This document shows, piece after piece, positions 1 through 33,915 of a stretch of 33,915 bases of DNA. Each line of letters opens with the position of its first letter. Positions within the stretch are counted from its first letter, which is position 1. The stretch covers positions 1 to 33,915 of IMG/VR virus record IMGVR_UViG_3300030376_001983; one strand, given 5' to 3'. The DNA comes from a virus (Duplodnaviria > Caudoviricetes). The notes beneath the pieces are model-generated. The model was given only the letters and a program-made list of their open reading frames with translations, did not search any database and was not told where the DNA came from. Position numbers and translations under genes: made by a program.

Positions 1-107
1 ACGTAACCATTGACGCAACAGAGAACGCACTAGCATCTGGCCCAGTAGCAGTAGCAACAGGTGTTACTCTCACTGTCACAACAGGAGGGAACTTGTCCAT
101 TGTCTGA
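1..107 (+). CDS. Partial CDS: 3' end of a tail-fibre-associated protein (second copy of the end of 32603..33067)
   Basis: 1..107 equals 32961..33067 except one synonymous change (89 G vs 33049 A); ends ...GGNLSIV* at TGA 105-107. Confidence 0.85.
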   Translation, partial: VTIDATENALASGPVAVATGVTLTVTTGGNLSIV

Positions 108-181
108 GATACGAGTTACAACGATAAGTGATACGGCTGGCACTGGCCCTGTTACGCTGACGAAGCAACACGCTGCAAAGG
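1..181 (+). repeat. Terminal homology block 1 (partner 32961..33141)
   Basis: 1..161 matches 32961..33121 with 1 mismatch; partial match continues to about 181, then similarity collapses. Confidence 0.97.
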
Positions 182-456
182 GTTGGCTTTTTCAGTCAAG
201 CGGAGGCTTAATTGAGAGTTTTAACATGTCTTCATATGTTGATAATTCTACAGGAAACTCCAGTTACAATTTAACCTCTGCAATAATTTCAACAGATGGT
301 CACATTTCAATGCCAATAGCCCGAACATCAGATGATAGGAATGTTTCTGTTATTATAAACTCTGCAAGTCAATTTACCGCTTATTCTAGGGATATTTCTG
401 CTAATGCATTGGAAGATAGCAACATTTTAGCTACAACACACGGAGACCTAGCATGA
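100..456 (+). CDS. Small tail-fibre tip / putative receptor-binding protein A, allele 1
   Basis: Likely TTG start at 100 after GGAGG (84-88), overlapping the upstream stop; AAKGW...SFNMSS.VDNSTG...HGDLA pattern shared with the next two ORFs. Confidence 0.75.
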   Translation: MSEIRVTTISDTAGTGPVTLTKQHAAKGWLFQSSGGLIESFNMSSYVDNSTGNSSYNLTSAIISTDGHISMPIARTSDDRNVSVIINSASQFTAYSRDISANALEDSNILATTHGDLA

Positions 457-533
457 GTACGATAACGGTCACAAACATCAAAGCCACAGGTGAAACAGCT
501 AGTCGTGCAGTGTCAGGGGTTGCGGCGGCTTGG
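439..533 (+). repeat. Terminal homology block 2 (partner 33420..33514), A/B gene junction
   Basis: 439..518 is identical to 33420..33499 (80 bp); partial match to about 533. Confidence 0.97.
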
Positions 534-842
534 GTTAATTTTAATGGGACTGGGACTATTGCGACTAGAGATAGTAACAATGTTTCAAGCTTAACAGATA
601 GTGGGACGGGCAAGTATGACATCAACTTTTCCAATAACGCTGGTAATGCTAACTACGCCTACAATGTTACATGTGCTAATACATCTAGTCCATTTTTAAG
701 AAATTTTTGGGTAAATGACGTTGCAAACGCAACTACCAGCAAAGTTCAGGCTCAAACACTTTACGCTTCTGATACATCAGGTAATGGCGCAAACTCGGAT
801 GCCATCCTTGTAAGCGTAACAACCCACGGAGACTTAGCATGA
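453..842 (+). CDS. Small tail-fibre tip / putative receptor-binding protein B, allele 1
   Basis: ATGA overlap with gene A; AAAWVNFNGTGT..RDS.NVSSLTDSGTGKY.INF motif typical of phage fibre C-terminal domains; ends HGDLA. Confidence 0.8.
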   Translation: MSTITVTNIKATGETASRAVSGVAAAWVNFNGTGTIATRDSNNVSSLTDSGTGKYDINFSNNAGNANYAYNVTCANTSSPFLRNFWVNDVANATTSKVQAQTLYASDTSGNGANSDAILVSVTTHGDLA

Positions 843-943
843 GTACACTAGAAGTATCCAACCTAAACGATGGCACAACAACTGTAGCGACTACGTTTGT
901 TACTGGTGGGTCTGCAAAGTCTTGGTGTCAATGGAGTGGAGCC
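824..943 (+). repeat. Terminal homology block 3 (partner 33796..33915), B/C gene junction
   Basis: 120 bp with one synonymous mismatch (865 A vs 33837 C); runs to the last base of the window. Confidence 0.97.
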
Positions 944-1204
944 AGCTCTATAAGAAACAGTTTAAATGTTTCTTCTATAACAGATGTAACCACAGGAAGT
1001 AATACGATTACCTATACAACTAGTTTTGCAAATGACGATTATGCTCAAGGTGGTATGGCAAGAGAAAACTCAAGTGGTGCCACTGCTCATATGCGTCTTT
1101 CAACTTTTGCTACTTCTAACACAAGATACTTTTGTGTTGATGAAAGTGGTACATCTATAGATGGAGAAACTCAAATGGTCGTAGTGCAAGGAGACATGGC
1201 ATGA
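839..1204 (+). CDS. Small tail-fibre tip / putative receptor-binding protein C
   Basis: ATGA overlap; SAKSW...SLNVSSITD..TG motif; ends QGDMA; paralog of A and B. Confidence 0.8.
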   Translation: MSTLEVSNLNDGTTTVATTFVTGGSAKSWCQWSGASSIRNSLNVSSITDVTTGSNTITYTTSFANDDYAQGGMARENSSGATAHMRLSTFATSNTRYFCVDESGTSIDGETQMVVVQGDMA

Positions 1205-1614
1205 CCCACAGACATCTATGGGATAGGTTAGCAGAAGCTAAGAGTAGGCTAGACCCAGTGCAGTCTAAGTATCGTGTGCTGTTCGAAGACCCAGCCGCAC
1301 CTGACGAACCAGCTAAGGTATTAGTGCCAGATCCTAATTGGATGGCTTGTGCTTTAGAGGGTGACATACTCCCACCTATAGAGACTTACCAGCGTGACAG
1401 AGGTGTGCCAGATGGACAGCCAAAGGAGCATCCATACGCTGAACCTATCGGTGCTATGACAGAGGAAGAAGCAATAGAATACTTAGTTCAAAAGGATATA
1501 GATCCGTCAGTATGGCGAGACTATAAAGGTAACAGAACAATCCTGAAGATTGTGCCTGTTGAAATGATCCCTAGTGATCGGTCATTTAGAAACGCATGGA
1601 GAATTATGCAATGA
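1201..1614 (+). CDS. Conserved phage protein, tail-fibre module
   Basis: ATGA overlap; C-terminal PSDRSFRNAW motif shared with the next ORF. Confidence 0.7.
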   Translation: MTHRHLWDRLAEAKSRLDPVQSKYRVLFEDPAAPDEPAKVLVPDPNWMACALEGDILPPIETYQRDRGVPDGQPKEHPYAEPIGAMTEEEAIEYLVQKDIDPSVWRDYKGNRTILKIVPVEMIPSDRSFRNAWRIMQ

Positions 1615-1958
1615 CAACTTACATCAATATCAACGGAGATGTTCGTGAGGCATCTTCTCTAACAGTACCTTCTGACAGAACGTTCAGAGGTGCTTGGCAG
1701 TTCAACGGTGACGCTGTTGAAGTGGATATGTCTAAAGCCAGAGATATTCACAAAGATAATCTAAGGGCAGAACGTGCGCCTAGATTAGAAGCTTTGGACG
1801 TAGACTATATGAAAGCGTTGGAGGCTGGCTCTGGTGCAGATGCTATAGCTGCTAAGAAGAAGACACTGAGAGACATTACAGCAGATGCTAAGATAGCTAA
1901 CGCATCAACCCCAGACGCTTTGAAGGCATTGGACTTGGCAACTCTACTAGGAGAGTAA
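1611..1958 (+). CDS. Putative tail fibre assembly chaperone
   Basis: Start placed at 1611 (ATGA overlap, GGAGA at 1598-1602); LRAER..LEALD...LRDIT helical motif like phage tail-assembly chaperones. Confidence 0.6.
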   Translation: MTTYININGDVREASSLTVPSDRTFRGAWQFNGDAVEVDMSKARDIHKDNLRAERAPRLEALDVDYMKALEAGSGADAIAAKKKTLRDITADAKIANASTPDALKALDLATLLGE

Positions 1959-6379: not shown

Positions 6380-6838
6380 TTACCAATTAGTATTGCTAGT
6401 TCGCTTTGTTTCTGGTGCTGGCTCATCATTTGCCACAGGCTTTGGCGTTGCACCTTTCCTGTTTTGCTCACCATCATCATCTTCAGCTGGTAAGTTTAGC
6501 AATGACATAATGCCATAGCGTCTAGCATATGTGATAGCACTGCCTAGTCCTTGCATATCATTCTTGCCTAGTACTAAAGGTATGGCTGTCACAAAGCTCT
6601 CGCCACTCTCATGCACAAGCTCTGTTGTGATAGACTTGCCATGCTCGTTTGATATTGCTCGATGCATAAGCAAGAAACCTTTCTTTGCTAGTGGCTCTGT
6701 CACCGCTTCGATCACGCTCTCAAGTGTAGCGTACTTGTTACCGAAGTGTGGATTCTTACCACTCTTTTTGATTGGCTCTATGTCGGCTCTTGCTTCCATA
6801 AGCATCTTGATAATATTTGTTTTGGTTTTGGTAGTCAT
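6380..6838 (-). CDS. erf: ERF-family single-strand annealing protein
   Basis: KNPHFGNKYATLE, GSAITYARRY and EDDDG motifs of the ERF superfamily. Confidence 0.92.
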   Translation of the reverse strand: MTTKTKTNIIKMLMEARADIEPIKKSGKNPHFGNKYATLESVIEAVTEPLAKKGFLLMHRAISNEHGKSITTELVHESGESFVTAIPLVLGKNDMQGLGSAITYARRYGIMSLLNLPAEDDDGEQNRKGATPKPVANDEPAPETKRTSNTNW

Positions 6839-7611
6839 TTCGTTCTCCTTGTTATTCTAAGATGTCCGCGCTTGTCACGCTTGACGGTGAGTTGGTCGCA
6901 ATAAACTTCTCGTTCGTTATCACTGACCATTTGCTTGAGATTTTTCTCAGCATTCTTGAAGACTTTGTTTTGTTCATATCCATGAATGTAGGTGACTGCT
7001 GCATCGACGAATTCATTGTCGAATGATGCATCTCGTGTTTCCATATCATCCAGCGTAATTGATAGCCTTGATAGTTTTGTTTCCTCAATTCCAACAGGCT
7101 GTTCATCGCGCATAACATAACCCCAGAAGTCAGACACCACTGCCCACATAGAATTGAAATACTCTTCGTTGTACTTGACATGTATGCACTCCCAATCACT
7201 GTTACCAAATATAACAGACAGGTATACACCTTCTGCTTTTGCCATGTGACAGTAGAACTGTAGCTGTGGCATGTATCGATCAAGCATTTTGTCCATGTTG
7301 TAGAACCTATTGGTATGCTTTGCTTCGATAATATTTCTTTCATCTTTTATGGCACCATCGATTGTGCCTTTCACTGGCACAGTACCAACTGTTCCAGTAA
7401 ACTCTCGCTGTTGTGCAACAACTTGCTTGCCTTCATTTGCGGTAAACCATTTCAAGTTGAAGTCTTCAGTATGCCGACCCAACTGTACTGGTAAGTTAAA
7501 CATTAGGTTCTCTGGTTCTTCACGACCTGTCTTTACTTTCCAGAGTTCGAGCCAGTAGCCTTCCATGATTTTGGTGCAGTCACTGCCACCAATGAAACCT
7601 TTACGTTCCAT
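6835..7611 (-). CDS. YqaJ/lambda-exonuclease-like recombination nuclease
   Basis: RKGFIGGSD, GTIDG, EAK and YMPQLQFY motifs; adjacent to erf. Confidence 0.88.
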   Translation of the reverse strand: MERKGFIGGSDCTKIMEGYWLELWKVKTGREEPENLMFNLPVQLGRHTEDFNLKWFTANEGKQVVAQQREFTGTVGTVPVKGTIDGAIKDERNIIEAKHTNRFYNMDKMLDRYMPQLQFYCHMAKAEGVYLSVIFGNSDWECIHVKYNEEYFNSMWAVVSDFWGYVMRDEQPVGIEETKLSRLSITLDDMETRDASFDNEFVDAAVTYIHGYEQNKVFKNAEKNLKQMVSDNEREVYCDQLTVKRDKRGHLRITRRTK

Positions 7612-11986: not shown

Positions 11987-12138
11987 TGCCAATGGGAAAA
12001 GGAACATATGGTGACAAGGTTGGAAGGCCTAAAAAAAAGAAATCTATGCTAAGTAAAAAGCAGAAGACGCTACCCCCAGCTTTGAAAAGAAAGATAATGA
12101 AGGCCAAGTCTGGCGGTTCTTCTGGTAGCTCTTACTAA
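11986..12138 (+). CDS. Tiny basic protein (50 aa), not in ORF track
   Basis: MPMGKGTYGDKVGRPKKKKSMLSKKQKTLPPALKRKIMKAKSGGSSGSSY. Confidence 0.8.
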   Translation: MPMGKGTYGDKVGRPKKKKSMLSKKQKTLPPALKRKIMKAKSGGSSGSSY

Positions 12139-12139
12139 G

Positions 12140-12313
12140 ATGGCTAAGAAGAAAAAGAGTTTGCTAAAACTGACCAAGCGTCAGGAGCAAACTATGAAGC
12201 GTCATAGTGAGCATCATACTCCCAAGCATATGAAGGTAATGAGGACTGCAATGCTAAAAGGTTCTACATTTGGTGAGGCGCATAAGTTAGCAAAGAAAAA
12301 GGTTGGTAACTAA
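12140..12313 (+). CDS. Tiny basic His/Met-rich protein (57 aa), not in ORF track
   Basis: MAKKKKSLLKLTKRQEQTMKRHSEHHTPKHMKVMRTAMLKGSTFGEAHKLAKKKVGN. Confidence 0.8.
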   Translation: MAKKKKSLLKLTKRQEQTMKRHSEHHTPKHMKVMRTAMLKGSTFGEAHKLAKKKVGN

Positions 12314-12480
12314 TGGCAGTTAATGCAGCTGGTAATTATACCAAACCTAAGATGAGAAAGTCTTTGTTTCAAAGGATCAAAGCAAGGGCTACACATGGTA
12401 CGGCTGCTGGTCAGTGGTCTGCTCGAAAGGCGCAGTTGCTTGCCAAGGAATATAAAAAACGTGGTGGTGGTTACAAGTAA
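12313..12480 (+). CDS. Tiny basic protein (55 aa), DUF5872-like N-terminal part, not in ORF track
   Basis: MAVNAAGNYTKP.MRK.LF..IK......AGQWSARKAQLLAKEYKKRGGGYK. Confidence 0.8.
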   Translation: MAVNAAGNYTKPKMRKSLFQRIKARATHGTAAGQWSARKAQLLAKEYKKRGGGYK

Positions 12481-12492
12481 AGGAGAAAACTA

Positions 12493-12645
12493 ATGGCTAA
12501 AAAACCTACATTACTTCAACAAAATCTAAAGAAACCATCTTTAGAAGATTTTATGAAAGCTTTTAACAAAGCATCAGATAGTCAACTTAAACCACTTCTT
12601 TCTAAATCTATGATAAGAAGAATGGAAAGGATTATGAAAAAGTGA
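12493..12645 (+). CDS. Tiny basic protein (50 aa), not in ORF track
   Basis: AGGAG RBS; MAKKPTLLQQNLKKPSLEDFMKAFNKASDSQLKPLLSKSMIRRMERIMKK; GTGA overlap. Confidence 0.75.
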   Translation: MAKKPTLLQQNLKKPSLEDFMKAFNKASDSQLKPLLSKSMIRRMERIMKK

Positions 12646-12878
12646 AGGCTTCACAAAAGTCTTTACTTAATTGGGGCAAGCAAAAGTGGCGCACCAAGTC
12701 TGGCAAAAAGTCTAGTGAGACAGGTGAACGGTACTTACCTAGCAAGGCTATTGCTGCTCTTAGTGATGCTGAATATGCAGCTACAACCAGAGCTAAACGA
12801 AAGGGTAAGGCAAAGGGTAAGCAGTTTGTGGCTCAACCGAAAAAGATTGCTAGGAAAGTAAAACAATATAGGAGTTAA
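12642..12878 (+). CDS. Small basic protein, DUF5872-like C-terminal part
   Basis: QKSL..W.KQKWRTK...ERYLP.KA...LS..E..AT...K..G...GKQFV. Confidence 0.75.
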   Translation: MKASQKSLLNWGKQKWRTKSGKKSSETGERYLPSKAIAALSDAEYAATTRAKRKGKAKGKQFVAQPKKIARKVKQYRS

Positions 12879-12880
12879 TT

Positions 12881-13114
12881 ATGGGCTGGATAATAGCAAA
12901 CACTGGCAAAGCTTATGATGGGGAAACCCATGAACTTGCTGGAACTACATTCTCAGGTAAAACAAGAACCTTTGAATCCAAAAGATTAGAGTGGGTTAAT
13001 CTTGTTGTTAAGTCTAAGGCAGCACCAAAAAAGAAACGTGCTAGAGATGACAAGGGTAGATTAAAAGCAGACGATCCTTCTACACCAGATGTTAACGAGG
13101 CTTACGAGCAATGA
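12881..13114 (+). CDS. Conserved small phage protein
   Basis: KRARDDKGR.KADDPSTPDVNEAY motif; AGGAG RBS. Confidence 0.75.
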   Translation: MGWIIANTGKAYDGETHELAGTTFSGKTRTFESKRLEWVNLVVKSKAAPKKKRARDDKGRLKADDPSTPDVNEAYEQ

Positions 13115-13341
13115 GACAAGAAGATAAACCAAAAAAGAAAACCAAAAAAAAGAAAACTCTTTTAGCTGGCTCTTTCAAAGATGATCTTTTTGAACCTAAT
13201 GAAATTATAAATATAAGTGATAATGATCTAGGTCGTTATTTATCTATGCATTTAAAAGCAATAAGAAATGATAATAGTAATAAAGGTGTTCGAGCAAATT
13301 ACAGAGCTATTCTTAGAGAACTAAGAAGAAGAGATAAGTAA
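13111..13341 (+). CDS. Small basic hypothetical protein
   Basis: ATGA and TAATG overlaps on both sides. Confidence 0.7.
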   Translation: MRQEDKPKKKTKKKKTLLAGSFKDDLFEPNEIINISDNDLGRYLSMHLKAIRNDNSNKGVRANYRAILRELRRRDK

Positions 13342-13541
13342 TGAGCTTTGTAAATACTTTAAAGACAGAAGAGCTTACTATGCTTCGAAGGATTGTTAAG
13401 AAGGTACACTTTAAATACTTTGATAAGAAACATGGTAAGTCTTTTGTGACAAACAAAATGCTAGACAATGTAATAGAAACCATTGGCCCAGAAGCAGTCG
13501 AGAAGATGATAAGGTCTGGAGTTGACAAGGGGCTGCGTTAG
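13341..13541 (+). CDS. Small hypothetical protein preceding terL
   Basis: Coupled to terL by a TAGTG overlap. Confidence 0.7.
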   Translation: MSFVNTLKTEELTMLRRIVKKVHFKYFDKKHGKSFVTNKMLDNVIETIGPEAVEKMIRSGVDKGLR

Positions 13542-15064
13542 TGGTCGATTTTAAATACAAGCCAGATGGTGATACTCTTAAAGGCTTTATGAAAGATAAT
13601 ACTTTCTTTCGTGGCATTCGAGGGCCAGTAGGATCTGGCAAATCAGTGGGATGTTGCGTTGAAGTATTTCGTAGAGCTTTGGAACAAAAGAAAGCCCCAG
13701 ATGGAAAACGAAAGTCACGATGGGCTATTATACGAAACACAAACCCACAACTACGAACTACAACTATTAAAACATGGCTTGACTGGTTCCCAGAAAATGA
13801 CTGGGGAAAGTTTACTTGGTCAGTGCCATACACCCATCACATCAAAAAAGGTGAGATAGATCTTGAGGTTATCTTCTTAGCATTAGATAGACCAGAAGAT
13901 GTAAAGAAACTGTTATCACTAGAACTAACAGGCATATGGATAAACGAGGCACGAGAAATTCCTAAGTCTATCATCGATGCTTGTACCATGCGTGTTGGTC
14001 GTTACCCTTCTATGCGTGATGGTGGACCAAGTTGGACAGGTGTTATAGCAGATACAAACGCGCCAGAAGAAGATCACTGGTGGCCTATTATGTCTGGCGA
14101 AGTTCCAATCCCTGATCATATTCCAAGAGAACAAGCTAAGATGCTAGTAAAACCTGATAACTGGCAGTTTTTTACACAGCCTTCCGCAATGCTCGAAGAA
14201 CGTGATGAAGATGGTGAGGTAGTAGATTACAAGCCAAACAATACTGCTGAAAACAAAAAACATATGCTTGCCAACTATTATGACAATTTAATAAGAGGTA
14301 AAACAAAAAGCTGGATTGATGTCTATGTTATGAATAGGCTTGGCACTATCCAAGACGGAAAGCCGATATACCCAATGTTCGCTGCAGAAGTACACATAGC
14401 CAAAGAAGAAATAGCGGTAGCTGCTGGCGCACCGCTATATGTTGGCTTGGACTTTGGGTTGACTCCAGCTGCAACTCTTGGACAAAAGATCAGGGGTCGC
14501 TGGCTCGTCCAGTCGGAGATAGTGGCCTTTGATATGGGGATTGTTAGGTTTGCTGAAGTATTGCGTGAAGAAATTTCCTCCCGATTTTCTCAAGCATCTG
14601 AGGTGTATATATACGGCGATCCCGCTGGGGATTTTAGAGCGCAGACAGATGAAAGTACCCCTTTCCACATCTTGCGCGGTGCTGGTTTGAGGGCATTCCC
14701 AGCCCCTTCGAACTCTGTAGACCTTCGGTTGGAAGCTGTCTCTTCCCAGCTAACTAAGATGGTTGAGGGCAAACCAGCATTTATTATTGATAGAAGGTGT
14801 CAGCAGTTGATCAAAGGATTTGAAGGTGGATATCAATATAAACGTATGGAAGTATCTGGTGAAAGGTATGCTGATAAACCTGATAAGAATATGTACTCTC
14901 ATATTCATGATGCCTTACAATACATGATGCTGGGTGCTGGTGAAGGTAGAGCTTTACTTAATAGTCAAAAACCAGCTAGACCTGTGATAGCAAGTAGAAA
15001 CTTTGATGTATTTAATAAAAAACCTGTTAAACAAAAAAGACAGGGTCTTTGGGCAAGAATGTAA
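13541..15064 (+). CDS. terL: Terminase large subunit
   Basis: Walker A GPVGSGKS, Walker B IWINE, nuclease GLDFG...GDPAG...H..DALQY. Confidence 0.95.
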   Translation: MVDFKYKPDGDTLKGFMKDNTFFRGIRGPVGSGKSVGCCVEVFRRALEQKKAPDGKRKSRWAIIRNTNPQLRTTTIKTWLDWFPENDWGKFTWSVPYTHHIKKGEIDLEVIFLALDRPEDVKKLLSLELTGIWINEAREIPKSIIDACTMRVGRYPSMRDGGPSWTGVIADTNAPEEDHWWPIMSGEVPIPDHIPREQAKMLVKPDNWQFFTQPSAMLEERDEDGEVVDYKPNNTAENKKHMLANYYDNLIRGKTKSWIDVYVMNRLGTIQDGKPIYPMFAAEVHIAKEEIAVAAGAPLYVGLDFGLTPAATLGQKIRGRWLVQSEIVAFDMGIVRFAEVLREEISSRFSQASEVYIYGDPAGDFRAQTDESTPFHILRGAGLRAFPAPSNSVDLRLEAVSSQLTKMVEGKPAFIIDRRCQQLIKGFEGGYQYKRMEVSGERYADKPDKNMYSHIHDALQYMMLGAGEGRALLNSQKPARPVIASRNFDVFNKKPVKQKRQGLWARM

Positions 15065-15074
15065 TTGTGCGTTG
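15065..15074 (+). promoter_or_regulatory. Late-module motif TTGTGCGTTG, copy 2
   Basis: Immediately after the terL stop, upstream of the portal operon. Confidence 0.65.
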
Positions 15075-15122
15075 CCAAAATTGTTTTTCTCTGCTTTGAG
15101 GGAAATATAAAGGAGATTTACT

Positions 15123-15509
15123 ATGTGCGGTAGAAAGAAAAGAGATCCTCGAATAGATGAGGAACAGAAAAAAGCAAGAGAAACAGCAGAGGCTGCAAAA
15201 GAACAAGCTTTAGCAAAACAAGAAGCTCAACGTCAAAAACAATTAGAAGCTGAAAGAGAAGCAGCTGCTAGTGCTGCTGCAACTGCAGAAGCTAATGCTG
15301 CAAAAGAAACAAGACAAGCAGAACTTAATATGCAAGCTGGAGAGTTAAACAATACTGGAACCTCTAAACAAACAGGAAGAACTAGTGGTTTGTTTGCTAG
15401 TAAAGCAGCAAGAAGAAGAAGTAGATCAGCAAGGTCTGGAAGAAGAGGAAGACGTAGTTTGCTTACATCATCAGGTGGTGGCGTAGGTTATTTTAGTAGG
15501 TTTCTATAA
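15123..15509 (+). CDS. Pre-portal virion protein
   Basis: MC start, Ala/Glu helix, GRRSLL motif typical of small genes before T7/BPP-1-type portals. Confidence 0.65.
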   Translation: MCGRKKRDPRIDEEQKKARETAEAAKEQALAKQEAQRQKQLEAEREAAASAAATAEANAAKETRQAELNMQAGELNNTGTSKQTGRTSGLFASKAARRRSRSARSGRRGRRSLLTSSGGGVGYFSRFL

Positions 15510-17044
15510 TGATAACAGATCCTATAGCAAAAGAGTTTCTCAAAAGATATGAGAGAGCAAAAGCAAAGCGTACAAACTTTGTTGATGTTTTTGAAGAGTG
15601 TTATGAGTTTGCGCTGCCGCAACGCGAATCATTTTACTATGAAGTTTCTGGTCAAAGAAGAGATGATAAAATCTTTGATGAGACTGCTGTTGTAGGAGTT
15701 CAAGAGTTTGCTTCAAGATTACAGTCTGGACTTGTTCCAAACTTTGCTCGATGGGCAGATTTAACTGCTGGGTCTGAAACACCAAAAGAACAAAGAGAAG
15801 CTGTTAATAATGAGCTTGAAGAAGTTACTGAATATGTTTTTGAAATACTTCAGAACTCAAACTTTGCACAAGAAGTTCATGAATCTTTTATGGACTTAGC
15901 AGTTGGTACTGGTGTCTTAGTATGCGAAGAAGGCGATGCTATCAATCCTATACGTTTTTCCGCAATACCATTACCTCATGTCATACTAGACACTGGGCCT
16001 GATGATCGCATTGATCATGTTTTTAGAGAAAGAAAATTTATAAGATATGATCAGTTACCAATGCTCTATCCAAATGGAACATTTAATTCAGAACTACAAA
16101 ACTTAATAGATAACTCTGATCAAACAACAACAGTCTTAGAAATAGTATGTAAAGATTATTCTAAAAAGAATGAAGAAGCATATCTATACTACGCAATATG
16201 TTTAACAACAAAATCTCTTATGATGCAAAGGCAGATGTCTGGAGTTGGCTCAAATCCTTTTATTTGTTTTCGTTGGTCTAAATGCGCTGGTGAGGTTTAT
16301 GGGCGAGGTCCATTATTCAACGCATTGAGTGCAATTAAAACTACTAACCTTACAGTTGAGATGATACTTGAGAATGCACAGATGGCTATCTCTGGCATTT
16401 ATCAAATGGAAGATGATGGGGTAATAAACCCTGACACAATTAACCTAGTCCCTGGAACAATAATTCCAAAGGCTATGGGATCAGCTGGATTACAACCAAT
16501 ACAAGCTGCTGGTAGCTTTGATGTAGCACAACTTGTTCTTGGTGATATGCGTAACAATATCAAACGTGCTTTATACAATGATATGCTTGGAGATCCTAAT
16601 CGAACACCAGCATCAGCAACAGAGATTGCAGAACGTATGGCAGATCTATCAAGACGTATTGGATCTGCTTTTGGTAGATTGCAAGTAGAATTAGTTCAGC
16701 CAGTATTACAACGTGTTGTTCATATTCTAAAGAAGCAAGGCAGACTAGAAGTCCCCACAATTAATGGCAGAGAAGTAAAAATAAGATCTGTGTCACCGTT
16801 AGCGCAAGCGCAAGCCAATCAGGATATTACTTCAGTGTCACGTTTTCTTGAGTTGGCTAATGGAGCATTTGGTGCAGATGCTATTAATGTATTAATTAAT
16901 ACGGAAGAAACAGCTGCATATCTAGCTAAGAAGTTTGGAATACCAGATAATTTAGTAAGAGATGAGCAAGAAAGAGAACAAATTCTTGCATTAATGCAAC
17001 AAATGCAGCAAGGTCAGGCGCAAGCACCACAACCTATGGAGTAA
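15509..17044 (+). CDS. Portal (head-to-tail connector), T7 gp8-like
   Basis: 511 aa; RW....GEVYGRGP, ATEI.ER and SPLAQAQ motifs. Confidence 0.93.
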   Translation: MITDPIAKEFLKRYERAKAKRTNFVDVFEECYEFALPQRESFYYEVSGQRRDDKIFDETAVVGVQEFASRLQSGLVPNFARWADLTAGSETPKEQREAVNNELEEVTEYVFEILQNSNFAQEVHESFMDLAVGTGVLVCEEGDAINPIRFSAIPLPHVILDTGPDDRIDHVFRERKFIRYDQLPMLYPNGTFNSELQNLIDNSDQTTTVLEIVCKDYSKKNEEAYLYYAICLTTKSLMMQRQMSGVGSNPFICFRWSKCAGEVYGRGPLFNALSAIKTTNLTVEMILENAQMAISGIYQMEDDGVINPDTINLVPGTIIPKAMGSAGLQPIQAAGSFDVAQLVLGDMRNNIKRALYNDMLGDPNRTPASATEIAERMADLSRRIGSAFGRLQVELVQPVLQRVVHILKKQGRLEVPTINGREVKIRSVSPLAQAQANQDITSVSRFLELANGAFGADAINVLINTEETAAYLAKKFGIPDNLVRDEQEREQILALMQQMQQGQAQAPQPME

Positions 17045-17047
17045 TGC

Positions 17048-17326
17048 TTGACTAAAAAAATCAATGTGGGTGTTGATGGGATACAGCGTCCACAAGAAAA
17101 AGATCAACAGATTAGCGAGAATATAGCCTCATTGTTTGGCTCTGCGACAGGACAAGCAGTCTTGCAGTATCTAAGATCAATTACTATTGAAATGGTAAAT
17201 GGCCCAAATGTAACTACGGAGGAACTGCGTCATATAGAAGGTCAACGATATTTAGTTGGTTTGATCGAAGCTCGTATGACACATGCACATAAGGTGAAAA
17301 ACAATGGAAGAAAATCAAGTAACTGA
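17048..17326 (+). CDS. Conserved head-module protein (Bbp19-like)
   Basis: F.S..GQAVL.YL...EGQR.LV..I pattern, after portal. Confidence 0.7.
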   Translation: MTKKINVGVDGIQRPQEKDQQISENIASLFGSATGQAVLQYLRSITIEMVNGPNVTTEELRHIEGQRYLVGLIEARMTHAHKVKNNGRKSSN

Positions 17327-18032
17327 AACTACAGAAGAAACAACTGAAGAAGTAAAAACTGTTGATAGTGTAACTTCTGAAACATCTGAAAGACCAGAAT
17401 GGTTGCCAGAAAAGTTTAATGATCCAGCTGATTTAGGTAAAGCATACAAAGCTTTAGAATCAAAGCTTGGTGAAAAAGAAGATGATGTTCGATCTAGACT
17501 TATGGATGAACTAAATGAACAGGCATCTGAAGGTGTACCAGCATCTGCTGGTGAGTATGAACTCCCTGATTTTATTGATGAAGAAGAAGCTTTAGAAAGT
17601 GATATGCTAAAAGACTGGGCAGATCACTGTCATTCTAATGGATATACCCATGAAGAATTTCAAAAAGGTATTGAAATGTATATGAATGGAATGGGTGATG
17701 ATAATGATATAGAAGCTGAAGCTGCACGATTGGGTGATAACTCTGATGCTAGAATAGAAGCTGCATCCCTCTTTGCTAATAAATTTTTTCCAGAAGAAGC
17801 TTTGCCAGCAATAGAACGTATGTGCGAAAGTGCAGATGGTATTGTTGCTCTTGAAGCAATTATGGAAGCAATAAAAGACCCAAGCGTAACAGAGCAAACT
17901 AACATATCATCAAACTTTAATGAGGTAGAGTTAACTGAAATGATGAGAGATGAGCGTTATTGGTCACCAGCAAAACGTGATATGAACTTTGTAAAGCAAG
18001 TAGATGAAGGTTTCAAAAAACTTTATGGATGA
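17304..18032 (+). CDS. Capsid scaffolding protein
   Basis: Very acidic; RPEWLPEKF....DL.KAY..LE.K motif; D.RYW C-terminus. Confidence 0.85.
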   Translation: MEENQVTETTEETTEEVKTVDSVTSETSERPEWLPEKFNDPADLGKAYKALESKLGEKEDDVRSRLMDELNEQASEGVPASAGEYELPDFIDEEEALESDMLKDWADHCHSNGYTHEEFQKGIEMYMNGMGDDNDIEAEAARLGDNSDARIEAASLFANKFFPEEALPAIERMCESADGIVALEAIMEAIKDPSVTEQTNISSNFNEVELTEMMRDERYWSPAKRDMNFVKQVDEGFKKLYG

Positions 18033-18543
18033 AGTAAAGATATTACAAAGTGGGTCGTATTATATGACCCCCTTTTATGAACATCACATAAGAGAAATAT
18101 ATTCTATACTGCATCCAGAAACAGAAAGAGAGCTTTCTAATCTTGGTTATTCTAACTCTCTTGAAGCTTTGCAAGATCTGCAAAAAGATTCTGAAGTCTA
18201 TATTGTAAGAGATAAAGACTGGAATATTATGATGGCAAGTGGTGTGTTCTTCTCTGAAGATCCACCACAACTCTTTGCATTGTTTACAAAACATGTAACA
18301 AAAAACTTCAAAGGATTGGCACGAGGATCTAAGTTATTAATATCATTCTTAGATCAGTCATATGAAGATTTATCTATGCAAATAGCAGAAGAATATGAGT
18401 CAATGTTGAACTGGGCAGTATGGTTAGGCTTTCATCCTGTTGGGTTTAGCGATTGGAAAAATGTGCGATATGTTGATTTTGTGCGTTGCAATCCGTCACA
18501 AAATTGTGTTTCACATAAAATATCAAGGCCTGTGATACACTGA
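18025..18543 (+). CDS. T7 gp13-like (acetyltransferase-fold) protein
   Basis: Start placed at 18025; C-terminal W..WLGF motif. Confidence 0.5.
   Translation: MDEVKILQSGSYYMTPFYEHHIREIYSILHPETERELSNLGYSNSLEALQDLQKDSEVYIVRDKDWNIMMASGVFFSEDPPQLFALFTKHVTKNFKGLARGSKLLISFLDQSYEDLSMQIAEEYESMLNWAVWLGFHPVGFSDWKNVRYVDFVRCNPSQNCVSHKISRPVIH
18479..18488 (+). promoter_or_regulatory. Late-module motif TTGTGCGTTG, copy 3
   Basis: Inside the 3' end of the preceding gene, about 135 bp before the capsid start. Confidence 0.65.
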
Positions 18544-18621
18544 GAAGCCCATTTGGATACCTTCATTGAGGATGTAAAGCAGATACCCAAGATGCCCGTA
18601 ACTTAATTTAGGAGAAAGAAA

Positions 18622-19431
18622 TTGGCTAATACAATAGACCAAGCCTTTATTAAGCAGTTCGAAACCGATGTGCATCTTGCATACCAGCGCATGGGTTCAA
18701 AACTGCGTAATACCATTCGTTCTACGAATGTGTCAGGCAATGTGGCTCGATTCCAGAAAATAGGAACTGGATCAGCTTCAACAAAATCGCGTAACGGTAA
18801 TGTTACACCAATGGAACTTGCACACACTAATGTGGAAGTAACAATGGCTGACTTCTATGCAGCTGAGTACATTGATAAACTTGATGAGTTGAAAACTAAT
18901 ATCAACGAGCGTCAAGCTATTGCTGAAAGTGCTGCTGCTGCGTTGGGTCGTAAAACTGATGAGATCATTACAACAGCTATGGATGCTGGTGCTAATTCAA
19001 CTCAGCTTCACGACACATCTTCTGCTGTTGAAAAAGCAGATCTTTTGTCAACCTTTGAAACATTTGGTACAGCAAGCATTCCAGAAGATGGACAACGCTA
19101 TATTGCTATGTCTCCAGCTGGTTTTGCAGACCTCTTTAATATTAATGAGTTTGCTTCAAGTGATTTTGTTGGACCACAAAACTTACCGTTTGCTGGCGGT
19201 ATGACAATGAAAGAGTTCTTGGGCTTCAAGATCTTTTCAACTTCAGCTGTAGCTGGTGGTAAAAACTTTGCTTATCACATGAGAGCAGTTGGTATTGGTG
19301 TGAACTCTGATGTTCAGACCGAAGTAAACTATGTAGCAGAAAAAGTATCGCACCTAGCGACATCAATGATGTCAATGGGTTCTGTTGTCATTGATGACAA
19401 TGGTATGTACGAACTGCTAGATAATAACTAG
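18622..19431 (+). CDS. Major capsid protein
   Basis: MANTIDQAFIKQFE..VH.AYQ..GSKLR; ALGRK.D; position after scaffold; TTG start with AGGAG. Confidence 0.92.
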   Translation: MANTIDQAFIKQFETDVHLAYQRMGSKLRNTIRSTNVSGNVARFQKIGTGSASTKSRNGNVTPMELAHTNVEVTMADFYAAEYIDKLDELKTNINERQAIAESAAAALGRKTDEIITTAMDAGANSTQLHDTSSAVEKADLLSTFETFGTASIPEDGQRYIAMSPAGFADLFNINEFASSDFVGPQNLPFAGGMTMKEFLGFKIFSTSAVAGGKNFAYHMRAVGIGVNSDVQTEVNYVAEKVSHLATSMMSMGSVVIDDNGMYELLDNN

Positions 19432-19443
19432 GAGGGTTAGAAA

Positions 19444-19707
19444 ATGGCTTTTGCTTCAAGTGGACTAACTCGTGTCGGTGGTGATTCAAATGGTAGCTTG
19501 TGGATGTATACATCTGCTGATGCTATCGCCGCTGTAAATAGTGCTGGATATTTTAATGATGCAGCAAACATGCTTGATGTTCGTGACTTAATTATCGTTC
19601 GCGATACTAATGTTCCAACAACAAGTTTTTGTACTGTTCTTTCAAATACTGGTACTGTTGTTGACGTATCTGATGGTACGGCAGTAGCTGAAACCGATGG
19701 CGACTAA
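19444..19707 (+). CDS. Small virion protein (possible capsid decoration)
   Basis: Follows the capsid gene before the terminator; W.Y.S.DAIA.V...GYFN. Confidence 0.6.
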   Translation: MAFASSGLTRVGGDSNGSLWMYTSADAIAAVNSAGYFNDAANMLDVRDLIIVRDTNVPTTSFCTVLSNTGTVVDVSDGTAVAETDGD

Positions 19708-19709
19708 TA

Positions 19710-19737
19710 GGTTGGGGCTTCGGCCCCACCCTTCTTT
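19710..19737 (+). terminator. Terminator after capsid genes
   Basis: TGGGGC-TTCG-GCCCCA then CCCTTCTTT. Confidence 0.75.
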
Positions 19738-19748
19738 GAGGATTTAGT

Positions 19749-20342
19749 ATGGCAGTTTCAAGTATACCAGCACAATCTCCAGTAGCTGTATGTAGTCGCG
19801 CTCTAATTCTTGTGGGTGCTGAACCTATTACATCATTTGATGATGGTAATAATGAAGCTTTGATTGCTTCGAACATGTATGAAGATGTTGCTCGATCATC
19901 TTTGCTAAATACTCGATGGAGATTTGCAACCAATCAATCAATATTAAATAGATTAACAGATGCTCCAACTGGTAGATTTGATGCTGCTTATCAGCTTCCA
20001 AGTGATTGGTTAATGACACATGTTGTAACTGTTAATGACACACCTATAGAATATCAAACTTATGGTGATAAATTATTTTGTAATGAGACAGCTAGTTCAG
20101 AGTTAGTATTAGACTTTACATTTAGAGCAAATGAACAGGGATGGCCTTCATATTTTACTATTGCTGTTGAGTATGAGTTAGCATCTGTATTTGCAGTTAG
20201 TTTAGCAAGAGATCAGAACCTTGCACAGCTTATGTCTCAACAAGCAGCAACATCGATGATGAGAGCAAGAAACTTAGATGCTCAACAACAAACAACAAGG
20301 AAACTTTCAACAAGTCGGTTTATTACAAATAGGCGAACGTAA
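19749..20342 (+). CDS. Tail tubular protein A / adaptor (T7 gp11-like)
   Basis: CS.AL..VG..PI.SF, WRFA and YQLPSD motifs. Confidence 0.85.
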   Translation: MAVSSIPAQSPVAVCSRALILVGAEPITSFDDGNNEALIASNMYEDVARSSLLNTRWRFATNQSILNRLTDAPTGRFDAAYQLPSDWLMTHVVTVNDTPIEYQTYGDKLFCNETASSELVLDFTFRANEQGWPSYFTIAVEYELASVFAVSLARDQNLAQLMSQQAATSMMRARNLDAQQQTTRKLSTSRFITNRRT

Positions 20343-22585: not shown

Positions 22586-23019
22586 TGTCTGTTTTTCAAG
22601 TTATAGGTTTAGGTTTAAAATTCATGGGCGGTATGCAAGCTGCCAGAGCGCAAGAGCAAGCATCAAAAGATAATGCTGAAGCAATGGTAACAGATCGGAT
22701 TGTTGGTGAGGCACAAGCAGCACAGCAACAAGTTATGCGATATCAGCAATACTTTGATGATCTTGCATATAATGAAGGTGCTTTATTAAAGAACAGAGAC
22801 TTTGATCAAAGTGTTAAGGCATTTATGGACAATCAAGAAGAAGTGGCATTTGATGACCTGACTGTAATGGCAAGGCAAGCAGATATGGAAAGTAGAAAAC
22901 AAACAGTGGCATCATTGCTTGAAATAGAACGCGGTAAGAACAGAGCATCTGCTACTAGAATAAATACACTATCAAGTTTTGCTTCTGGTCTACATGATTT
23001 AAGTACAACTTTTACTTAG
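22585..23019 (+). CDS. Internal virion (ejection) protein, small
   Basis: Ala/Gln-rich helical protein after the nozzle. Confidence 0.6.
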   Translation: MSVFQVIGLGLKFMGGMQAARAQEQASKDNAEAMVTDRIVGEAQAAQQQVMRYQQYFDDLAYNEGALLKNRDFDQSVKAFMDNQEEVAFDDLTVMARQADMESRKQTVASLLEIERGKNRASATRINTLSSFASGLHDLSTTFT

Positions 23020-23027
23020 GATAAAAT

Positions 23028-29509: not shown

Positions 29510-29513
29510 CTTT

Positions 29514-29523
29514 TTGTGCGTTG
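29514..29523 (+). promoter_or_regulatory. Late-module motif TTGTGCGTTG, copy 4
   Basis: Intergenic, upstream of the tail fibre operon. Confidence 0.65.
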
Positions 29524-29568
29524 CGACTTTTAATCTTCACTGCTATTTCCATAAAAAAGAGGTAAATC

Positions 29569-30945: not shown

Positions 30946-31254
30946 ATGGCTAATACATTCAAAAACTTTACAAGCAGTTCGGTGGGTACTAATGAAACAA
31001 CTACCTACATTACCCCACTTGCAACGACTACGGTGACTATTGGTTTATCGATAGCTAATACAAGTGCTAGTCAAATTAAGGTTACGGTTAAGGCTGCTGG
31101 TGTTCATGTAATAAAGGACGCTCCTATACCAGCATCTTCTGCTTTGTCAGTATTGGATGGTAAGATTATCCTAGAAGCTTCTGATTCGATAACTGTAACA
31201 TCAGACACTGCGGCAAGTGCAGATGCAATTCTAAGTGTATTGGAGCAAACCTAA
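30946..31254 (+). CDS. Small tail-fibre adaptor-like protein
   Basis: MANTFKN...IGLS.AN...K.AP.P....L....GKI.LE..D pattern. Confidence 0.65.
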   Translation: MANTFKNFTSSSVGTNETTTYITPLATTTVTIGLSIANTSASQIKVTVKAAGVHVIKDAPIPASSALSVLDGKIILEASDSITVTSDTAASADAILSVLEQT

Positions 31255-32603
31255 TGGCTGGATATATAGGGCAACGCTCGGTAACTCTCAGCACGACTGT
31301 AGCTAATGCTCAAGACGTTACGGCTACTGACACCACACCAGAAGTAACCATAATAAATAACACGCATGAGGACAGTGACTCTGGTCGTGAGGGAAAAGTT
31401 ATTTTTAAAGGTCAACAGTCTGGCGGTGAAGAAAGCACATTAGCTGAAATAGAGGCAAATCATCACGGAAGCGCGGACGATGAGAAAGGCCAACTTATCT
31501 TTAGAACTAATGACGGTTCTGACGGTGCTAGCCCAACGGAGGCTATGAGGATAGCTTCTGATCAAAAAGTAGGAATTGGAACGAGTTCGCCTAGCCATAG
31601 TCTTCATCTATCTTCTTCTAGTGGGTCTACTTTAGCAATTACAGCAGGAACTAGTGACAATGCACAAGTAAGATTTGGTGACAGTTCTGACGATGATGCT
31701 GGTAAAATAAATTATGATAATTCCAGTAATCATATGGCATTTCATACTAATGCTTCAGAACGTATGCGTATCGATAGCAGCGGTAACTTGATTGTGGCTA
31801 AGACTGCTCTTGGTTCTGATGCAGGGGCAGAGTTAAGGTCCACAGGTTATGTATCTTTTACTAGAGATAACGCCACTGTTTTTACAGTCCGAAGAAATGG
31901 AACAGAGAGCGCTCATATGAACTTCATACATGACACAGGTGAGATAGGTGCTATTGGAACCTCTGGTGCTGCTCTTCGTATGTTCTCAACAGCTACAAAC
32001 TACAAAGGTCTGGCTTTTGAATTTAAAGCAATCACACCAACAAGCAATCAAGGAGTAGATCAAGATAATTCTACAGACTTAGGATCTGCAACTACGCGCT
32101 TTGACGATGTTAGAGCAACCAATGGCACTATTCAAACATCTGACGAAAATGATAAACAAGACATTGCATCATTAACTAGCGCAGAGATTACTGCGGCTAC
32201 AGCTATCAGCAAACTATTCAAGACATACAAATGGAAAGACAAGGTAGCAGATAAAGGTGACTCTGCTAGAACACATACTGGTGTGGTTGCACAGCAAGTA
32301 CAAACTGCAATGGCAGACGCAGGATTAGACGCAAGCAAGTATGCTTTCTGGTGTTCTGATACTTGGTGGGAAAAAGATGTTGAGGTTGCTGCTGTTGAAG
32401 CAAATGAAGAAGAGGGTAGAGAAGCCGCTGACGCATACACACGCACTGATACTTACAGCACTAAAGACGCAGCACCAGAAGGTGCAACAGAACGTACAAG
32501 ACTAGGTGTAAGATACCCAGAGTTACTAGCGTTTATTGGTGCAGCAACAGAACAAAGATTGACTAGCATTGAGGCTAGACTAACGGCACTGGAGGCAGAA
32601 TAA
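31254..32603 (+). CDS. Tail fibre with C-terminal peptidase S74 intramolecular chaperone
   Basis: VGIGTSSP and ERMRIDSSGNL shaft repeats; TSDEN.K, H.G.VAQ and G.RY.EL motifs. Confidence 0.88.
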   Translation: MAGYIGQRSVTLSTTVANAQDVTATDTTPEVTIINNTHEDSDSGREGKVIFKGQQSGGEESTLAEIEANHHGSADDEKGQLIFRTNDGSDGASPTEAMRIASDQKVGIGTSSPSHSLHLSSSSGSTLAITAGTSDNAQVRFGDSSDDDAGKINYDNSSNHMAFHTNASERMRIDSSGNLIVAKTALGSDAGAELRSTGYVSFTRDNATVFTVRRNGTESAHMNFIHDTGEIGAIGTSGAALRMFSTATNYKGLAFEFKAITPTSNQGVDQDNSTDLGSATTRFDDVRATNGTIQTSDENDKQDIASLTSAEITAATAISKLFKTYKWKDKVADKGDSARTHTGVVAQQVQTAMADAGLDASKYAFWCSDTWWEKDVEVAAVEANEEEGREAADAYTRTDTYSTKDAAPEGATERTRLGVRYPELLAFIGAATEQRLTSIEARLTALEAE

Positions 32604-33067
32604 TGGCTGGATATATCGGTGACATACCTGTTCCACAGGCTACCCAAACAAGACAAACCTTTACAGCTACAGCTAGTCAAACCTCGTTTCCCACGATTGG
32701 ATATACTGCTGGGTTTATAGATTGCTATCTCAATGGAGTAAAAATTTTAGACGGCGTAGATTATAACGCGACAAATGGCAGTGATGTGGTTCTTACAACT
32801 GGAGCTGCACTCAATGACATTTTAGAAGTTACTATTTTCACTGCTGTTGATTTAAGCACTGCTGTAGGTGGCGGTAGATACAAGGGTGAGCGTGGCACTA
32901 ACGGCCCAGCGGCTGCTGCTGGTGACATCTTTAGGGTGCATGAGCAAACGCTGAATACAAACGTAACCATTGACGCAACAGAGAACGCACTAGCATCTGG
33001 CCCAGTAGCAGTAGCAACAGGTGTTACTCTCACTGTCACAACAGGAGGAAACTTGTCCATTGTCTGA
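32603..33067 (+). CDS. Tail fibre-associated protein
   Basis: MAGYIG N-terminus; FTATA.QT.F...Y....D.YLNGV....DY.ATNG..V.L domain; C-terminal NA...GPV....GVTLTV. Confidence 0.75.
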   Translation: MAGYIGDIPVPQATQTRQTFTATASQTSFPTIGYTAGFIDCYLNGVKILDGVDYNATNGSDVVLTTGAALNDILEVTIFTAVDLSTAVGGGRYKGERGTNGPAAAAGDIFRVHEQTLNTNVTIDATENALASGPVAVATGVTLTVTTGGNLSIV

Positions 33068-33437
33068 GATACGAGTTACAACGATAAGTGATACGGCTGG
33101 CACTGGCCCTGTTACGCTGACTAAGCAGAGTGCTGCAAAGGCGTCCTTGAATTATAAAGGCACATCTACAAATAGTATTCGTTATAGTTTTAATGTATCA
33201 AGTGTTACAGATAACACGACTGGAAATTATACGACTAATTTTACTAACAGTATGTCAAGTGCAGACTACACAGTTACTTGCGCTCAAGGTGGAGACACAA
33301 GCAACAATGAAGTTCGTGTTCCTCAAAACGGAGGAGCTTTAGCCGCTAGTAGTTTTCAAGTTAATACGTTGCTTGTCGGATCAGCTATTAATGATGCTAC
33401 ATATTTATTTGAGACAATCCACGGAGACCTAGCATGA
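33060..33437 (+). CDS. Small tail-fibre tip protein A, allele 2
   Basis: Same first about 27 aa and HGDLA end as 100..456; different core, 7 aa longer. Confidence 0.75.
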   Translation: MSEIRVTTISDTAGTGPVTLTKQSAAKASLNYKGTSTNSIRYSFNVSSVTDNTTGNYTTNFTNSMSSADYTVTCAQGGDTSNNEVRVPQNGGALAASSFQVNTLLVGSAINDATYLFETIHGDLA

Positions 33438-33814
33438 GTACGATAACGGTCACAAACATCAAAGCCACAGGTGAAACAGCTAGTCGTGCAGTGTCAGGGA
33501 TTGCTGCTGCTTGGTGTCATTGGGACAACAATGGTGGTAATGACACAAGAGACTCTTTAAATGTTTCTAGTAGAGGAGACCTTGGTACTGGATACTCTAG
33601 TGTAAACTTCACAAACAGCTTTAAAGATAGTCTTTCAAAGTCAGTGACTACTGGCGCAAATGACGTTGATGCTAGTACTAGTTTTTATGATTTAAGTCCT
33701 CACACATACACCGCTAGTCAGGTTCAATTCGACGGGTGGAAACAGACGGATGATACTACTACTCAAGTGGACTTGAATAGGAACATGACTACAATCCACG
33801 GAGACTTAGCATGA
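33434..33814 (+). CDS. Small tail-fibre tip protein B, allele 2
   Basis: Same first about 27 aa and HGDLA end as 453..842; different core, 3 aa shorter. Confidence 0.8.
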   Translation: MSTITVTNIKATGETASRAVSGIAAAWCHWDNNGGNDTRDSLNVSSRGDLGTGYSSVNFTNSFKDSLSKSVTTGANDVDASTSFYDLSPHTYTASQVQFDGWKQTDDTTTQVDLNRNMTTIHGDLA

Positions 33815-33915
33815 GTACACTAGAAGTATCCAACCTCAACGATGGCACAACAACTGTAGCGACTACGTTTGTTACTGGTGGGTCTGCAAAGTCTTGGTGT
33901 CAATGGAGTGGAGCC
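33811..33915 (+). CDS. Partial tip protein C (5' end)
   Basis: Matches 839..943 with one synonymous change; truncated by the window end. Confidence 0.85.
   Translation, partial: MSTLEVSNLNDGTTTVATTFVTGGSAKSWCQWSGA

Follow-up and report, generated by a model that had tools for sequence, protein, structure and literature searches.

In diversity-generating retroelements (DGRs) and shufflons (tail-fibre invertases), a likely receptor-binding protein has a constant and a variable part. The way in which phages of abundant marine bacteria match strain-level surface diversity is usually visible only as coverage gaps. Several described systems come close to the locus presented here, as far as the accessible parts of the papers go. 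In flexible gene modules, co-existing host-recognition variants shuffle independently on a stable backbone (Bellas et al., 2020, PMC7468147). Conserved motifs, or their surroundings, are also where exchanges take place in the gp38 adhesins of T2/T6-type phages (Trojet et al., 2011, PMC3157838). The conserved boundary-sequence model of phage mosaicism places exchange at short conserved sequences at gene or domain borders (PMC3233612), and Rad52-like phage recombinases tolerate sequence divergence (De Paepe et al., 2014, PMC3945230).

We have analyzed a stretch of 33,915 nucleotides, hereafter the window, which is the entire record IMGVR_UViG_3300030376_001983 (Caudoviricetes). It carries an array of tandem paralogous genes (A, B and C, the slots), each made of a short header and a variable core. 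The array resembles flexible modules and metaviromic islands in the near-identical backbone, the divergent co-existing variants and the assemblies broken at the variable site. However, in the modules, as presented in the accessible text of PMC7468147, a single locus of a single phage receives alternative variants, whereas in the array the variable unit is smaller than a gene, a domain with defined ends, and the cores move among three paralogous slots and are common to phages with unrelated capsids and replication genes. We have found a near-identical backbone with divergent variants and, in relatives, variants that recur in different combinations, and we consider the array a member of the class of flexible host-recognition modules, of the replacement type.

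Like gp38, the array encodes small separate tip proteins with a conserved N-terminal attachment part and a variable specificity part, but gp38 is encoded by a single gene, whose four hypervariable segments are separated by glycine-rich motifs (as described in the available part of PMC3157838). The array has three or four genes, a predicted beta-sandwich core that is mostly moved whole, and movement between paralogs; besides, no glycine-rich motifs were found in the core alignments and the predicted core is all-beta, which sets it apart from gp38. The presumed exchange at short conserved borders, tolerant to mismatches, is shared with the boundary-sequence and Rad52-like models (PMC3233612 and PMC3945230, in their accessible parts). 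Unlike in the former, the boundaries of the array lie inside coding sequence, three in tandem, and most carriers have no recognised Rad52-like enzyme. In contrast with DGRs there is no reverse transcriptase and no adenine bias, and in contrast with shufflons there is no invertase, all the cassettes are in direct orientation and each genome has one allele. The initial annotation of this DNA had proposed a route to host-range variation independent of both. Our analysis supports the population pool on which this proposal rests, and a presumed effect on host range; routes of this general kind have been described already in what is available of PMC7468147 and PMC3157838. A repertoire of chimeric adhesive fibre tips is also found in the MAT fibres of Bdellovibrio (Caulton et al., 2024, PMC10769870), which according to the accessible text sit on the bacterial surface, have long stalks and carry tips of different folds, unlike the one-fold phage array. 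The available part of PMC12379486, on structural variants of marine phages, does not include this array. Our literature search, which covered mainly openly accessible main texts so that its silence is weak evidence, gave no description of the array or of slot-crossing cores shared across lineages. The class of mechanism is known, and what is added here are slot-independent whole-domain cores in a tandem paralog array across lineages.

Organization of the array

A fibre gene ending in GGNLSIV is followed by A, B and C, at times by a fourth gene (X), and then by D. Each of A, B and C consists of a slot-specific header of 26–28 amino acids and a core of about 95 amino acids that runs from a conserved Trp column to the GDLA-stop. 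These measurements, with the HGDLA-stop contained in the 3' repeat, agree with the constant N-terminus of about 27 residues and the HGDLA end that had been noticed before. The features of the window are the following:

32603..33067, + strand: upstream short fibre-like gene ending in GGNLSIV-stop; PHROG tail-fibre matches; overlaps the beginning of A; positions 1-107 repeat its 3' end
100..456, + strand: major allele of gene A (A1), with the header at 100-183 and the core starting at the Trp codon at 184; phrog_11355
453..842, + strand: major allele of gene B (B1), with the header at 453-530 and the core starting at 531; phrog_11355, E 8e-15
839..1204, + strand: gene C, third paralog; header 839-922; phrog_11355, E 1e-16
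33060..33437, + strand: gene A, allele 2 (minor); core from 33144; low depth in X1-X3
33434..33814, + strand: gene B, allele 2 (minor); core from 33512; 100% identical in contig L004
33811..33915, + strand: the C header again, where the circle joins 839-943
439..518, + strand: A/B island of 80 bp, the 3' repeat of A plus the header of B; equal to 33420-33499
439..456, + strand: 3' junction repeat CACGGAGACYTAGCATGA, with the HGDLA-stop, an ATGA stop/start overlap and a likely Shine-Dalgarno GGAG
825-842, 33420-33437, 33797-33814: further copies of CACGGAGACYTAGCATGA, with a variant at 1187-1204
1201..1614, + strand: gene D, conserved downstream neighbour
1596..1958, + strand: gene E, conserved neighbour; phrog_20196; start probably at 1611
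6380-6838, - strand: ERF single-strand annealing protein; PF04404, E 2e-23
6835-7611, - strand: YqaJ/RecE-like exonuclease; PF09588

All five cassette genes match the PHROG 11355 profile (tail fiber protein; E 7.5e-7 to 1.2e-16), none of them has a match in Pfam, and the Rfam search gave 0 matches. The start of gene A is most likely the TTG at 100 and 33060, judging from the homologous A header, which begins with TTG in 123 of 129 A genes. The GGNL(S/A)IV end precedes A in at least 113 of 122 arrays and D comes after C in at least 117 of 132. Gene D has neither a Pfam nor a PHROG match and is unnamed in the ESM Atlas; homologues were found in HMO-2011, Mel-JY33, Nsp-JY18 and SI2. Gene E follows D in the loci long enough to show it. 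Only one core allele of gene C is present in the window, and in relatives the gene varies (110 slot-C core clusters) just as much as A and B. Two other fibre-like genes, at 1960-2979 (CBM-like) and 31254-32603 (bearing an S74 chaperone), are replaced by other variants in related loci where D and E are conserved, and from their sequences look like more flexible tail modules beside the array. The rest of the window encodes T7-like head and tail genes, terminase, endolysin, ERF, the YqaJ exonuclease and a RusA-like resolvase (Pfam and PHROG profiles); the profile search gave no match to PolA in this genome.

Two alleles of one circular genome

The two ends of the window had been described as the same locus with constant blocks and divergent cores, and the comparison confirmed it in detail. 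Block 1-161 differs from 32961-33121 by one mismatch (at 89), 439-518 is identical to 33420-33499, and 824-943 differs from 33796-33915 by one mismatch (at 865). These blocks are far beyond chance, since no exact repeat longer than 14–17 nt arose when the window was shuffled 20 times. The cores between them measure 257 and 278 nt in A and 290 and 281 nt in B, i.e., they differ by 21 and 9 nt, every reading frame is open, and amino acid identity is 26% between A1 and A2 and 28% between B1 and B2.

Read depth was obtained from three public runs of one study (X1-X3), in which the backbone reached 66–72, 40–44 and 68–76, respectively. In the same order, depth was 9.9, 5.6 and 21 over the A2 core, and over the B2 core it was 8.7, 9.3 and 19. 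For contigs that bridge the exact A1 boundaries (33127 to 33420) it was 59.5, 43.7 and 60.8, and across the B1 boundaries 51.7, 31.3 and 39.9, these last two sets of values being read from joints that match the A1 and B1 boundaries in contigs whose inner letters are not given. The sum of A1-type and A2 depth (69.4, 49.3 and 81.8) is close to the backbone, and that of the B alleles (60, 41 and 59) equals it or is somewhat lower. A1 and B1 are the major alleles, and A2 and B2, with 11–32% of the summed allele depth in the three runs, the minor ones. The two end copies are not a duplication, because the A allele depths add up to about the depth of the backbone; depth fits alleles that co-exist on one backbone. 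The contig is a circle of about 32.96 kb that was entered via one allele and left via another. Additional cores bridge the same constant blocks in X1-X3, and another run (X5) had no cover over the A2 and B2 cores.

It had also been suggested that A and B could be swapped independently. The two nearest IMG/VR contigs phase as upstream-A1-B1-C (L007) and A2-B2-C-downstream (L004), although they perhaps come from related data and their independence is incomplete. Neither A1-B2 nor A2-B1 was seen in this phage's population. Single-slot swaps of A, B and C do occur in relatives (see below), and an A2-type core is paired with a different B in L125. Same-slot combinations drawn from short reads could be chimeric through the 80-bp island. 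The initial annotation had named fixed haplotypes together with breakpoints away from the junctions as evidence against its reading; only A1-B1 and A2-B2 were found, but the breakpoints concentrate at the junctions. Only 3 of 146 other arrays have an identical island, a modest argument for a close donor or for two swaps made separately.

Some minor differences between strains were detected. The A at 33049 (G at the twin position 89) was read as G in all the X1-X3 contigs and may be a base of the minor haplotype or of the assembly. A second strain-variable region is located at 12000-13341, where G024 (A1-B1) is 82–89% identical in pieces but 99% over 13342-30000; G023 (A2-B2) is 100% identical to the window over 12000-14369. 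The C header of L007 has 5 mismatches at 862-906 followed by unchanged sequence, which makes this header polymorphic even in closely related strains. In the main fibre gene (29569-30474) there are 30-nt (10-residue) repeats at 30071-30433, with variant joints in the runs.

A pool of cores in related loci

Junction DNA patterns retrieved 311 related loci. Among 900 ORFs with a family match, 841 had a stop and lay outside L167, and 812 passed the core-length and end filter; after merging duplicates, and including the window's two alleles, 187 distinct arrays with 475 complete genes remained (56 genes not assignable to a slot). Clustered at 85% nucleotide identity, the cores gave 343 types, among which 254 had a single member, and the Chao1 estimate for this sample of loci is about 870 cores. 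The population pool of core alleles that the initial annotation had postulated is supported: the two alleles co-exist on one backbone, single slots are swapped in relatives and breakpoints concentrate at the junctions. In the 98 complete arrays (4753 pairs, with slot labels that predate a small correction), 37 pairs had one core in common, five had two, five had three and 4706 none; thus, 37 of the 47 pairs sharing any core have just one in common. At the sequence level, these counts show that cores assort largely independently.

Several pairs of loci have flanks 95–100% identical and swapped cores, in C only (L072/L066), in B (L140/L021), in A (L245/L298) or in all three (L231/L283). The GenBank phages Mel-JY33 and Nsp-JY18, with one array each, have flanks 96% identical and three cores that cannot be aligned. 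They repeat the pattern, which is therefore not confined to metagenome assemblies. Both are recorded on different cyanobacterial genera while being 96% alike around the array (loci L313 and L314), reflecting either a host shift linked to the cores or doubtful host labels. Relatives of A, D and E are also present in HMO-2011, less strictly ordered.

The plain ABC order was found in 84 of 187 arrays, many others being cut by contig ends. Variants include the header order A-C-B (L232/L012), A alone before D (L296) and the fourth gene X (L186/L270/L241). One of the last, G018 (L270), has a capsid protein 97% identical to that of the window and yet an ABXC array. In the record of Dunaliella viridis virus SI2 (L315:1433-2908) a long protein encoded immediately ahead of D ends in a single fused core with the GDLA terminus, and by its sequence this would be an unsplit form of the module.

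Cores shared between slots and lineages

The most unusual feature of the array, missed by the initial annotation, is that cores cross slots and move between unrelated phages. Among the 78 clusters with at least two slot-assigned members, 22 span slots. In 11 of these a pair from different slots is at least 95% identical in DNA; same-slot pairs at that level were found in 54 clusters. The A1 core of the window is 99.6% identical to a slot-C core (L054) and its A2 core 98.6% identical to a slot-B core (L052). In 20 of 22 cases, cross-slot identity begins 0–11 nt before the Trp codon and ends 0–5 nt beyond the stop. In the two exceptions (L015 and L022) identity continues into the next header; these may be intermediates of unequal crossover or chimeras. 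The tree of headers required 2 slot changes against a null mean of 131 (200 shuffles), and that of cores 148 against 153.9 (range 139–168), although this second tree is poorly resolved and the missing slot signal is thus partly noise. None of the 149 multi-gene arrays contained the same core twice, which points to exchange between genomes and not to copying within one. Finally, a window-like capsid protein was found in only 6 of 23 long array-bearing records, and PolA in 8, indicating that the array sits in unrelated backbones.

Junctions and breakpoints

Cores are bounded by Ala-Lys/Ala-Ala-Trp codons at the 5' side and by the GGAGACYTAGCATGA end at the 3' side. The genes end in GGA GAC YTA GCA TGA. 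At the codons with free third positions, GGA was found in 352, GAC in 343 and YTA in 354 of 356 ends, whereas within cores the background frequencies are 0.29, 0.34 and 0.53, respectively. A Shine-Dalgarno GGAG and the ATGA overlap (translational coupling) account for part of this conservation, but the third positions of GAC and YTA are left unexplained by either. Likeness at four-fold sites was 0.64–0.74 in the headers against 0.56 in D and 0.50 in the upstream gene (55/102 arrays, with non-independent pairs), while protein identity of the headers was equal to or lower than that of the neighbours. This fits repeated homogenisation by recombination. The loci were gathered by their junction DNA, so that junction conservation is inflated; Nsp-JY18, found by protein search, has decayed 3' ends.

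Breakpoints had been expected at the conserved junctions, and they are concentrated there, though not exactly. In same-slot swaps, the place of the first mismatch ahead of the Trp codon varies. Moreover, of 160 cluster pairs with a 20-mer in common, 8 show a step-like mosaic inside the core, so breakpoints can drift into it. Homology between slots at the 5' side is very short (5–10 of 12 nt), at or below the length that annealing proteins are thought to need. Close cores differ mostly by transitions, with 382 synonymous versus 244 non-synonymous changes, and adenine is involved in 456 of 914 differences (63 close core pairs). With half of the differences involving A and an excess of synonymous ones, there is no DGR signature. 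The junction repeats are direct, and no matching inverted pair was found among the 25 longest repeats.

Recombination enzymes and host

The 23 long array-bearing records (16 of them at least 90% complete) were searched for recombination enzymes. Reverse transcriptase (PF00078) was found in none, while the positive controls matched in 3 of 14. Tyrosine recombinase (PF00589) appeared in 4 of the 23 and serine recombinase (PF00239) in 2. In agreement with the initial annotation, none of these three enzymes was found in the six frames of the window genome (G000). ERF was found in two records, RecT in one, Sak in none and Sak4-like proteins above the cut-off in two, so that in most carriers no annealing protein of these types was recognised. 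Nor does one particular enzyme accompany the array throughout these records. The ERF that had been mentioned as possibly used is ruled out for the family as a whole, since it is present in just 2 of 23; by analogy, ERF and the exonuclease are a plausible candidate recombination pair for this phage only.

Known systems were also considered and discarded. For a shufflon, there was no recombinase match in the window genome and no matching inverted pair among the 25 longest repeats, and the alleles are in different genomes. For a DGR, besides the absence of reverse transcriptase in the 23 records, there were no adenine-specific differences and no template copy for a variable repeat in the genome. 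An integron was rejected with no PF00589 match in the window genome and a repeat of 15–18 bp within coding sequence.

As for the host, the scan of GTDB genomes for the junction gave 0 matches, i.e., no host or prophage there. The nearest capsid is that of Pelagibacter phage Hodr (52.6%), and together with the HMO-2011 homologues it leads us to guess an alphaproteobacterium.

Predicted structure of the core

The initial annotation had suggested structure prediction of the cores. A core-only model of B1 gave a confident beta-sandwich (pLDDT 86); it replaced a first model from a narrower B-type alignment, which had pLDDT 64 and no clear Foldseek match. The best solved matches were the tailspikes of phiAB6 (Z 7.1) and Pam1 (6.5) and gp53 of the Acinetobacter phage AP22 (5.4), followed by H-type lectins (5.3) and the R2 pyocin fibre (5.2); a viral envelope protein of an unrelated kind (5.5) also ranked among them. 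These scores (Z 5.1–7.1) are middling, below 8, over 69–95 aligned residues with rmsd 2.2–3.4; Foldseek against PDB gave none at E<=0.001, and the PDB sequence search 0 matches. Predicted viral structures of BFVD match strongly, including tail fibres of Syn5, S-TIM5 and ACG-2014f, and in the ESM Atlas only unnamed viral clusters were found at 0.9 or above, with K1-lyase_C (0.83) and H-lectin (0.79) as leads only. The core domain was C-terminal in all 76 longer homologues, some of them T7-type or collagen fibres, and its profile matches 31,077 clusters at 50% identity. The fold is predicted to be H-type-lectin-like, of the kind found at the C-terminus of tail fibres. At these middling scores, the predicted fold resembles that of AP22 gp53, R-type pyocin fibres, the Pam1 and phiAB6 tailspikes and H-type lectins, but in the phage and pyocin proteins the domain is the end of a long chain, and H-type lectins are animal proteins, whereas in the array it stands alone on a header of 26–28 residues. 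A role as a glycan-binding fibre tip is likely from fold and gene context, on which the presumed receptor binding and change of host range also rest.

Possible mechanism of core exchange

We consider it probable that this is an array of predicted tip genes with three slots, in which the headers are fixed to their slot and cores of about 290 bp are swapped by mismatch-tolerant homologous recombination at the two junctions. Exchange would take place between phages during co-infection. Same-slot swaps would use the headers, of 60–160 bp, as homology arms, while the rarer moves between slots would start at the shared TGC-N4-GCT-TGG, helped by similar first codons of the resident core, and end in the 15–18-bp 3' repeat. 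Selection would hold the joints at the domain boundary. The recombinase could be whichever is present, a phage annealing protein or the host RecA. The headers would dock each tip on the virion and the cores would bind different surface glycans of the host strains.

Random illegitimate joining followed by selection could lead to a similar picture, with junctions conserved for docking and translational coupling and only domain-boundary joins surviving. Translational coupling would indeed explain GGAG and GCATGA, and the shared 5' runs between slots are just 0–11 nt. It is a recognised alternative to the boundary-sequence model in the accessible text of PMC3233612. Yet neither constraint needs the third positions of GAC and YTA; the four-fold sites are homogenised even in header A (0.67, against 0.50 in the neighbouring gene), although none of the search patterns included this header, and same-slot swaps have arms of 60–160 bp, so that we find this explanation unlikely. 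A dedicated site-specific system, integron- or shufflon-like and served by a host or helper enzyme that recognises the 3' repeat and the 5' junction, would account for the near-invariant 15-bp direct repeat after every gene, for the predominance of whole-core transfers and for the arrays with altered order or with one or four genes. It seems very unlikely given how few records carry a tyrosine or serine recombinase, with neither in the window genome. Moreover, the 5' junction differs from slot to slot, the same-slot breakpoints are scattered upstream of the Trp codon, internal mosaics exist, and all three cores differ in Nsp-JY18 in spite of its decayed 3' repeat.

Chimeric assembly of phages with common blocks might have created both alleles and the apparent shuffling. 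All but a few of the loci are short-read assemblies, the window itself runs through two variants, G024 differs from it near 12.0–13.3 kb, and L015 and L022 could be chimeras via a shared core. Nevertheless, depth sums to one backbone, with long pieces that carry no other letters, a core can be mis-joined across slots only where it really occurs in the two contexts, usual k-mers exceed the length of the shared 5' runs, and the two deposited phage genomes show the same pattern, all of which makes an artefact highly improbable. The contig displays both copies as terminal direct repeats, as would be expected if each genome carried both alleles (by terminal redundancy or duplication) and switched them internally. 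This is scarcely credible when A2 and B2 have so small a share of the depth, no multi-gene array repeats a core and the deposited phages have one array.

The locus offers a defined unit, the core of about 290 bp with mapped ends, and a large natural library with evidence of trade between unrelated phages and between paralogs. The debate between boundary sequences and illegitimate recombination becomes directly testable, as the junctions can be recoded synonymously, and there are cultured carriers of the full array (Mel-JY33 and Nsp-JY18) or of related genes (HMO-2011). Core swapping explains the broken assemblies or false terminal repeats in such genomes here. With binding predicted, core exchange likely varies the host cells to which the phage attaches.

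It is also conceivable, though rather doubtful, that A, B and C co-assemble in one mixed fibre head where headers fix the positions and any core fits any position. The solved folds that match the core are trimers. This and other hints point in that direction: three genes are usual, no core is repeated, and three copies is the commonest number in multi-copy proteins among the top family matches (16 of 52, with 11 each for two and five copies). The four-gene and one-gene arrays argue against a strict heterotrimer. Prediction of the A+B+C complex scored 0.20 against a mark of 0.32, an unusable answer that does not count as evidence. If true, such a head would be a combinatorial binding library of three specificities drawn from many hundreds of cores, spread across unrelated marine phage lineages and kept recombinable through DNA-level selection on the junctions. 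Among the proteins P0197-P0240 there are some with up to 9–15 tandem copies of the core domain, and about ten consist of just three copies (337–356 aa).
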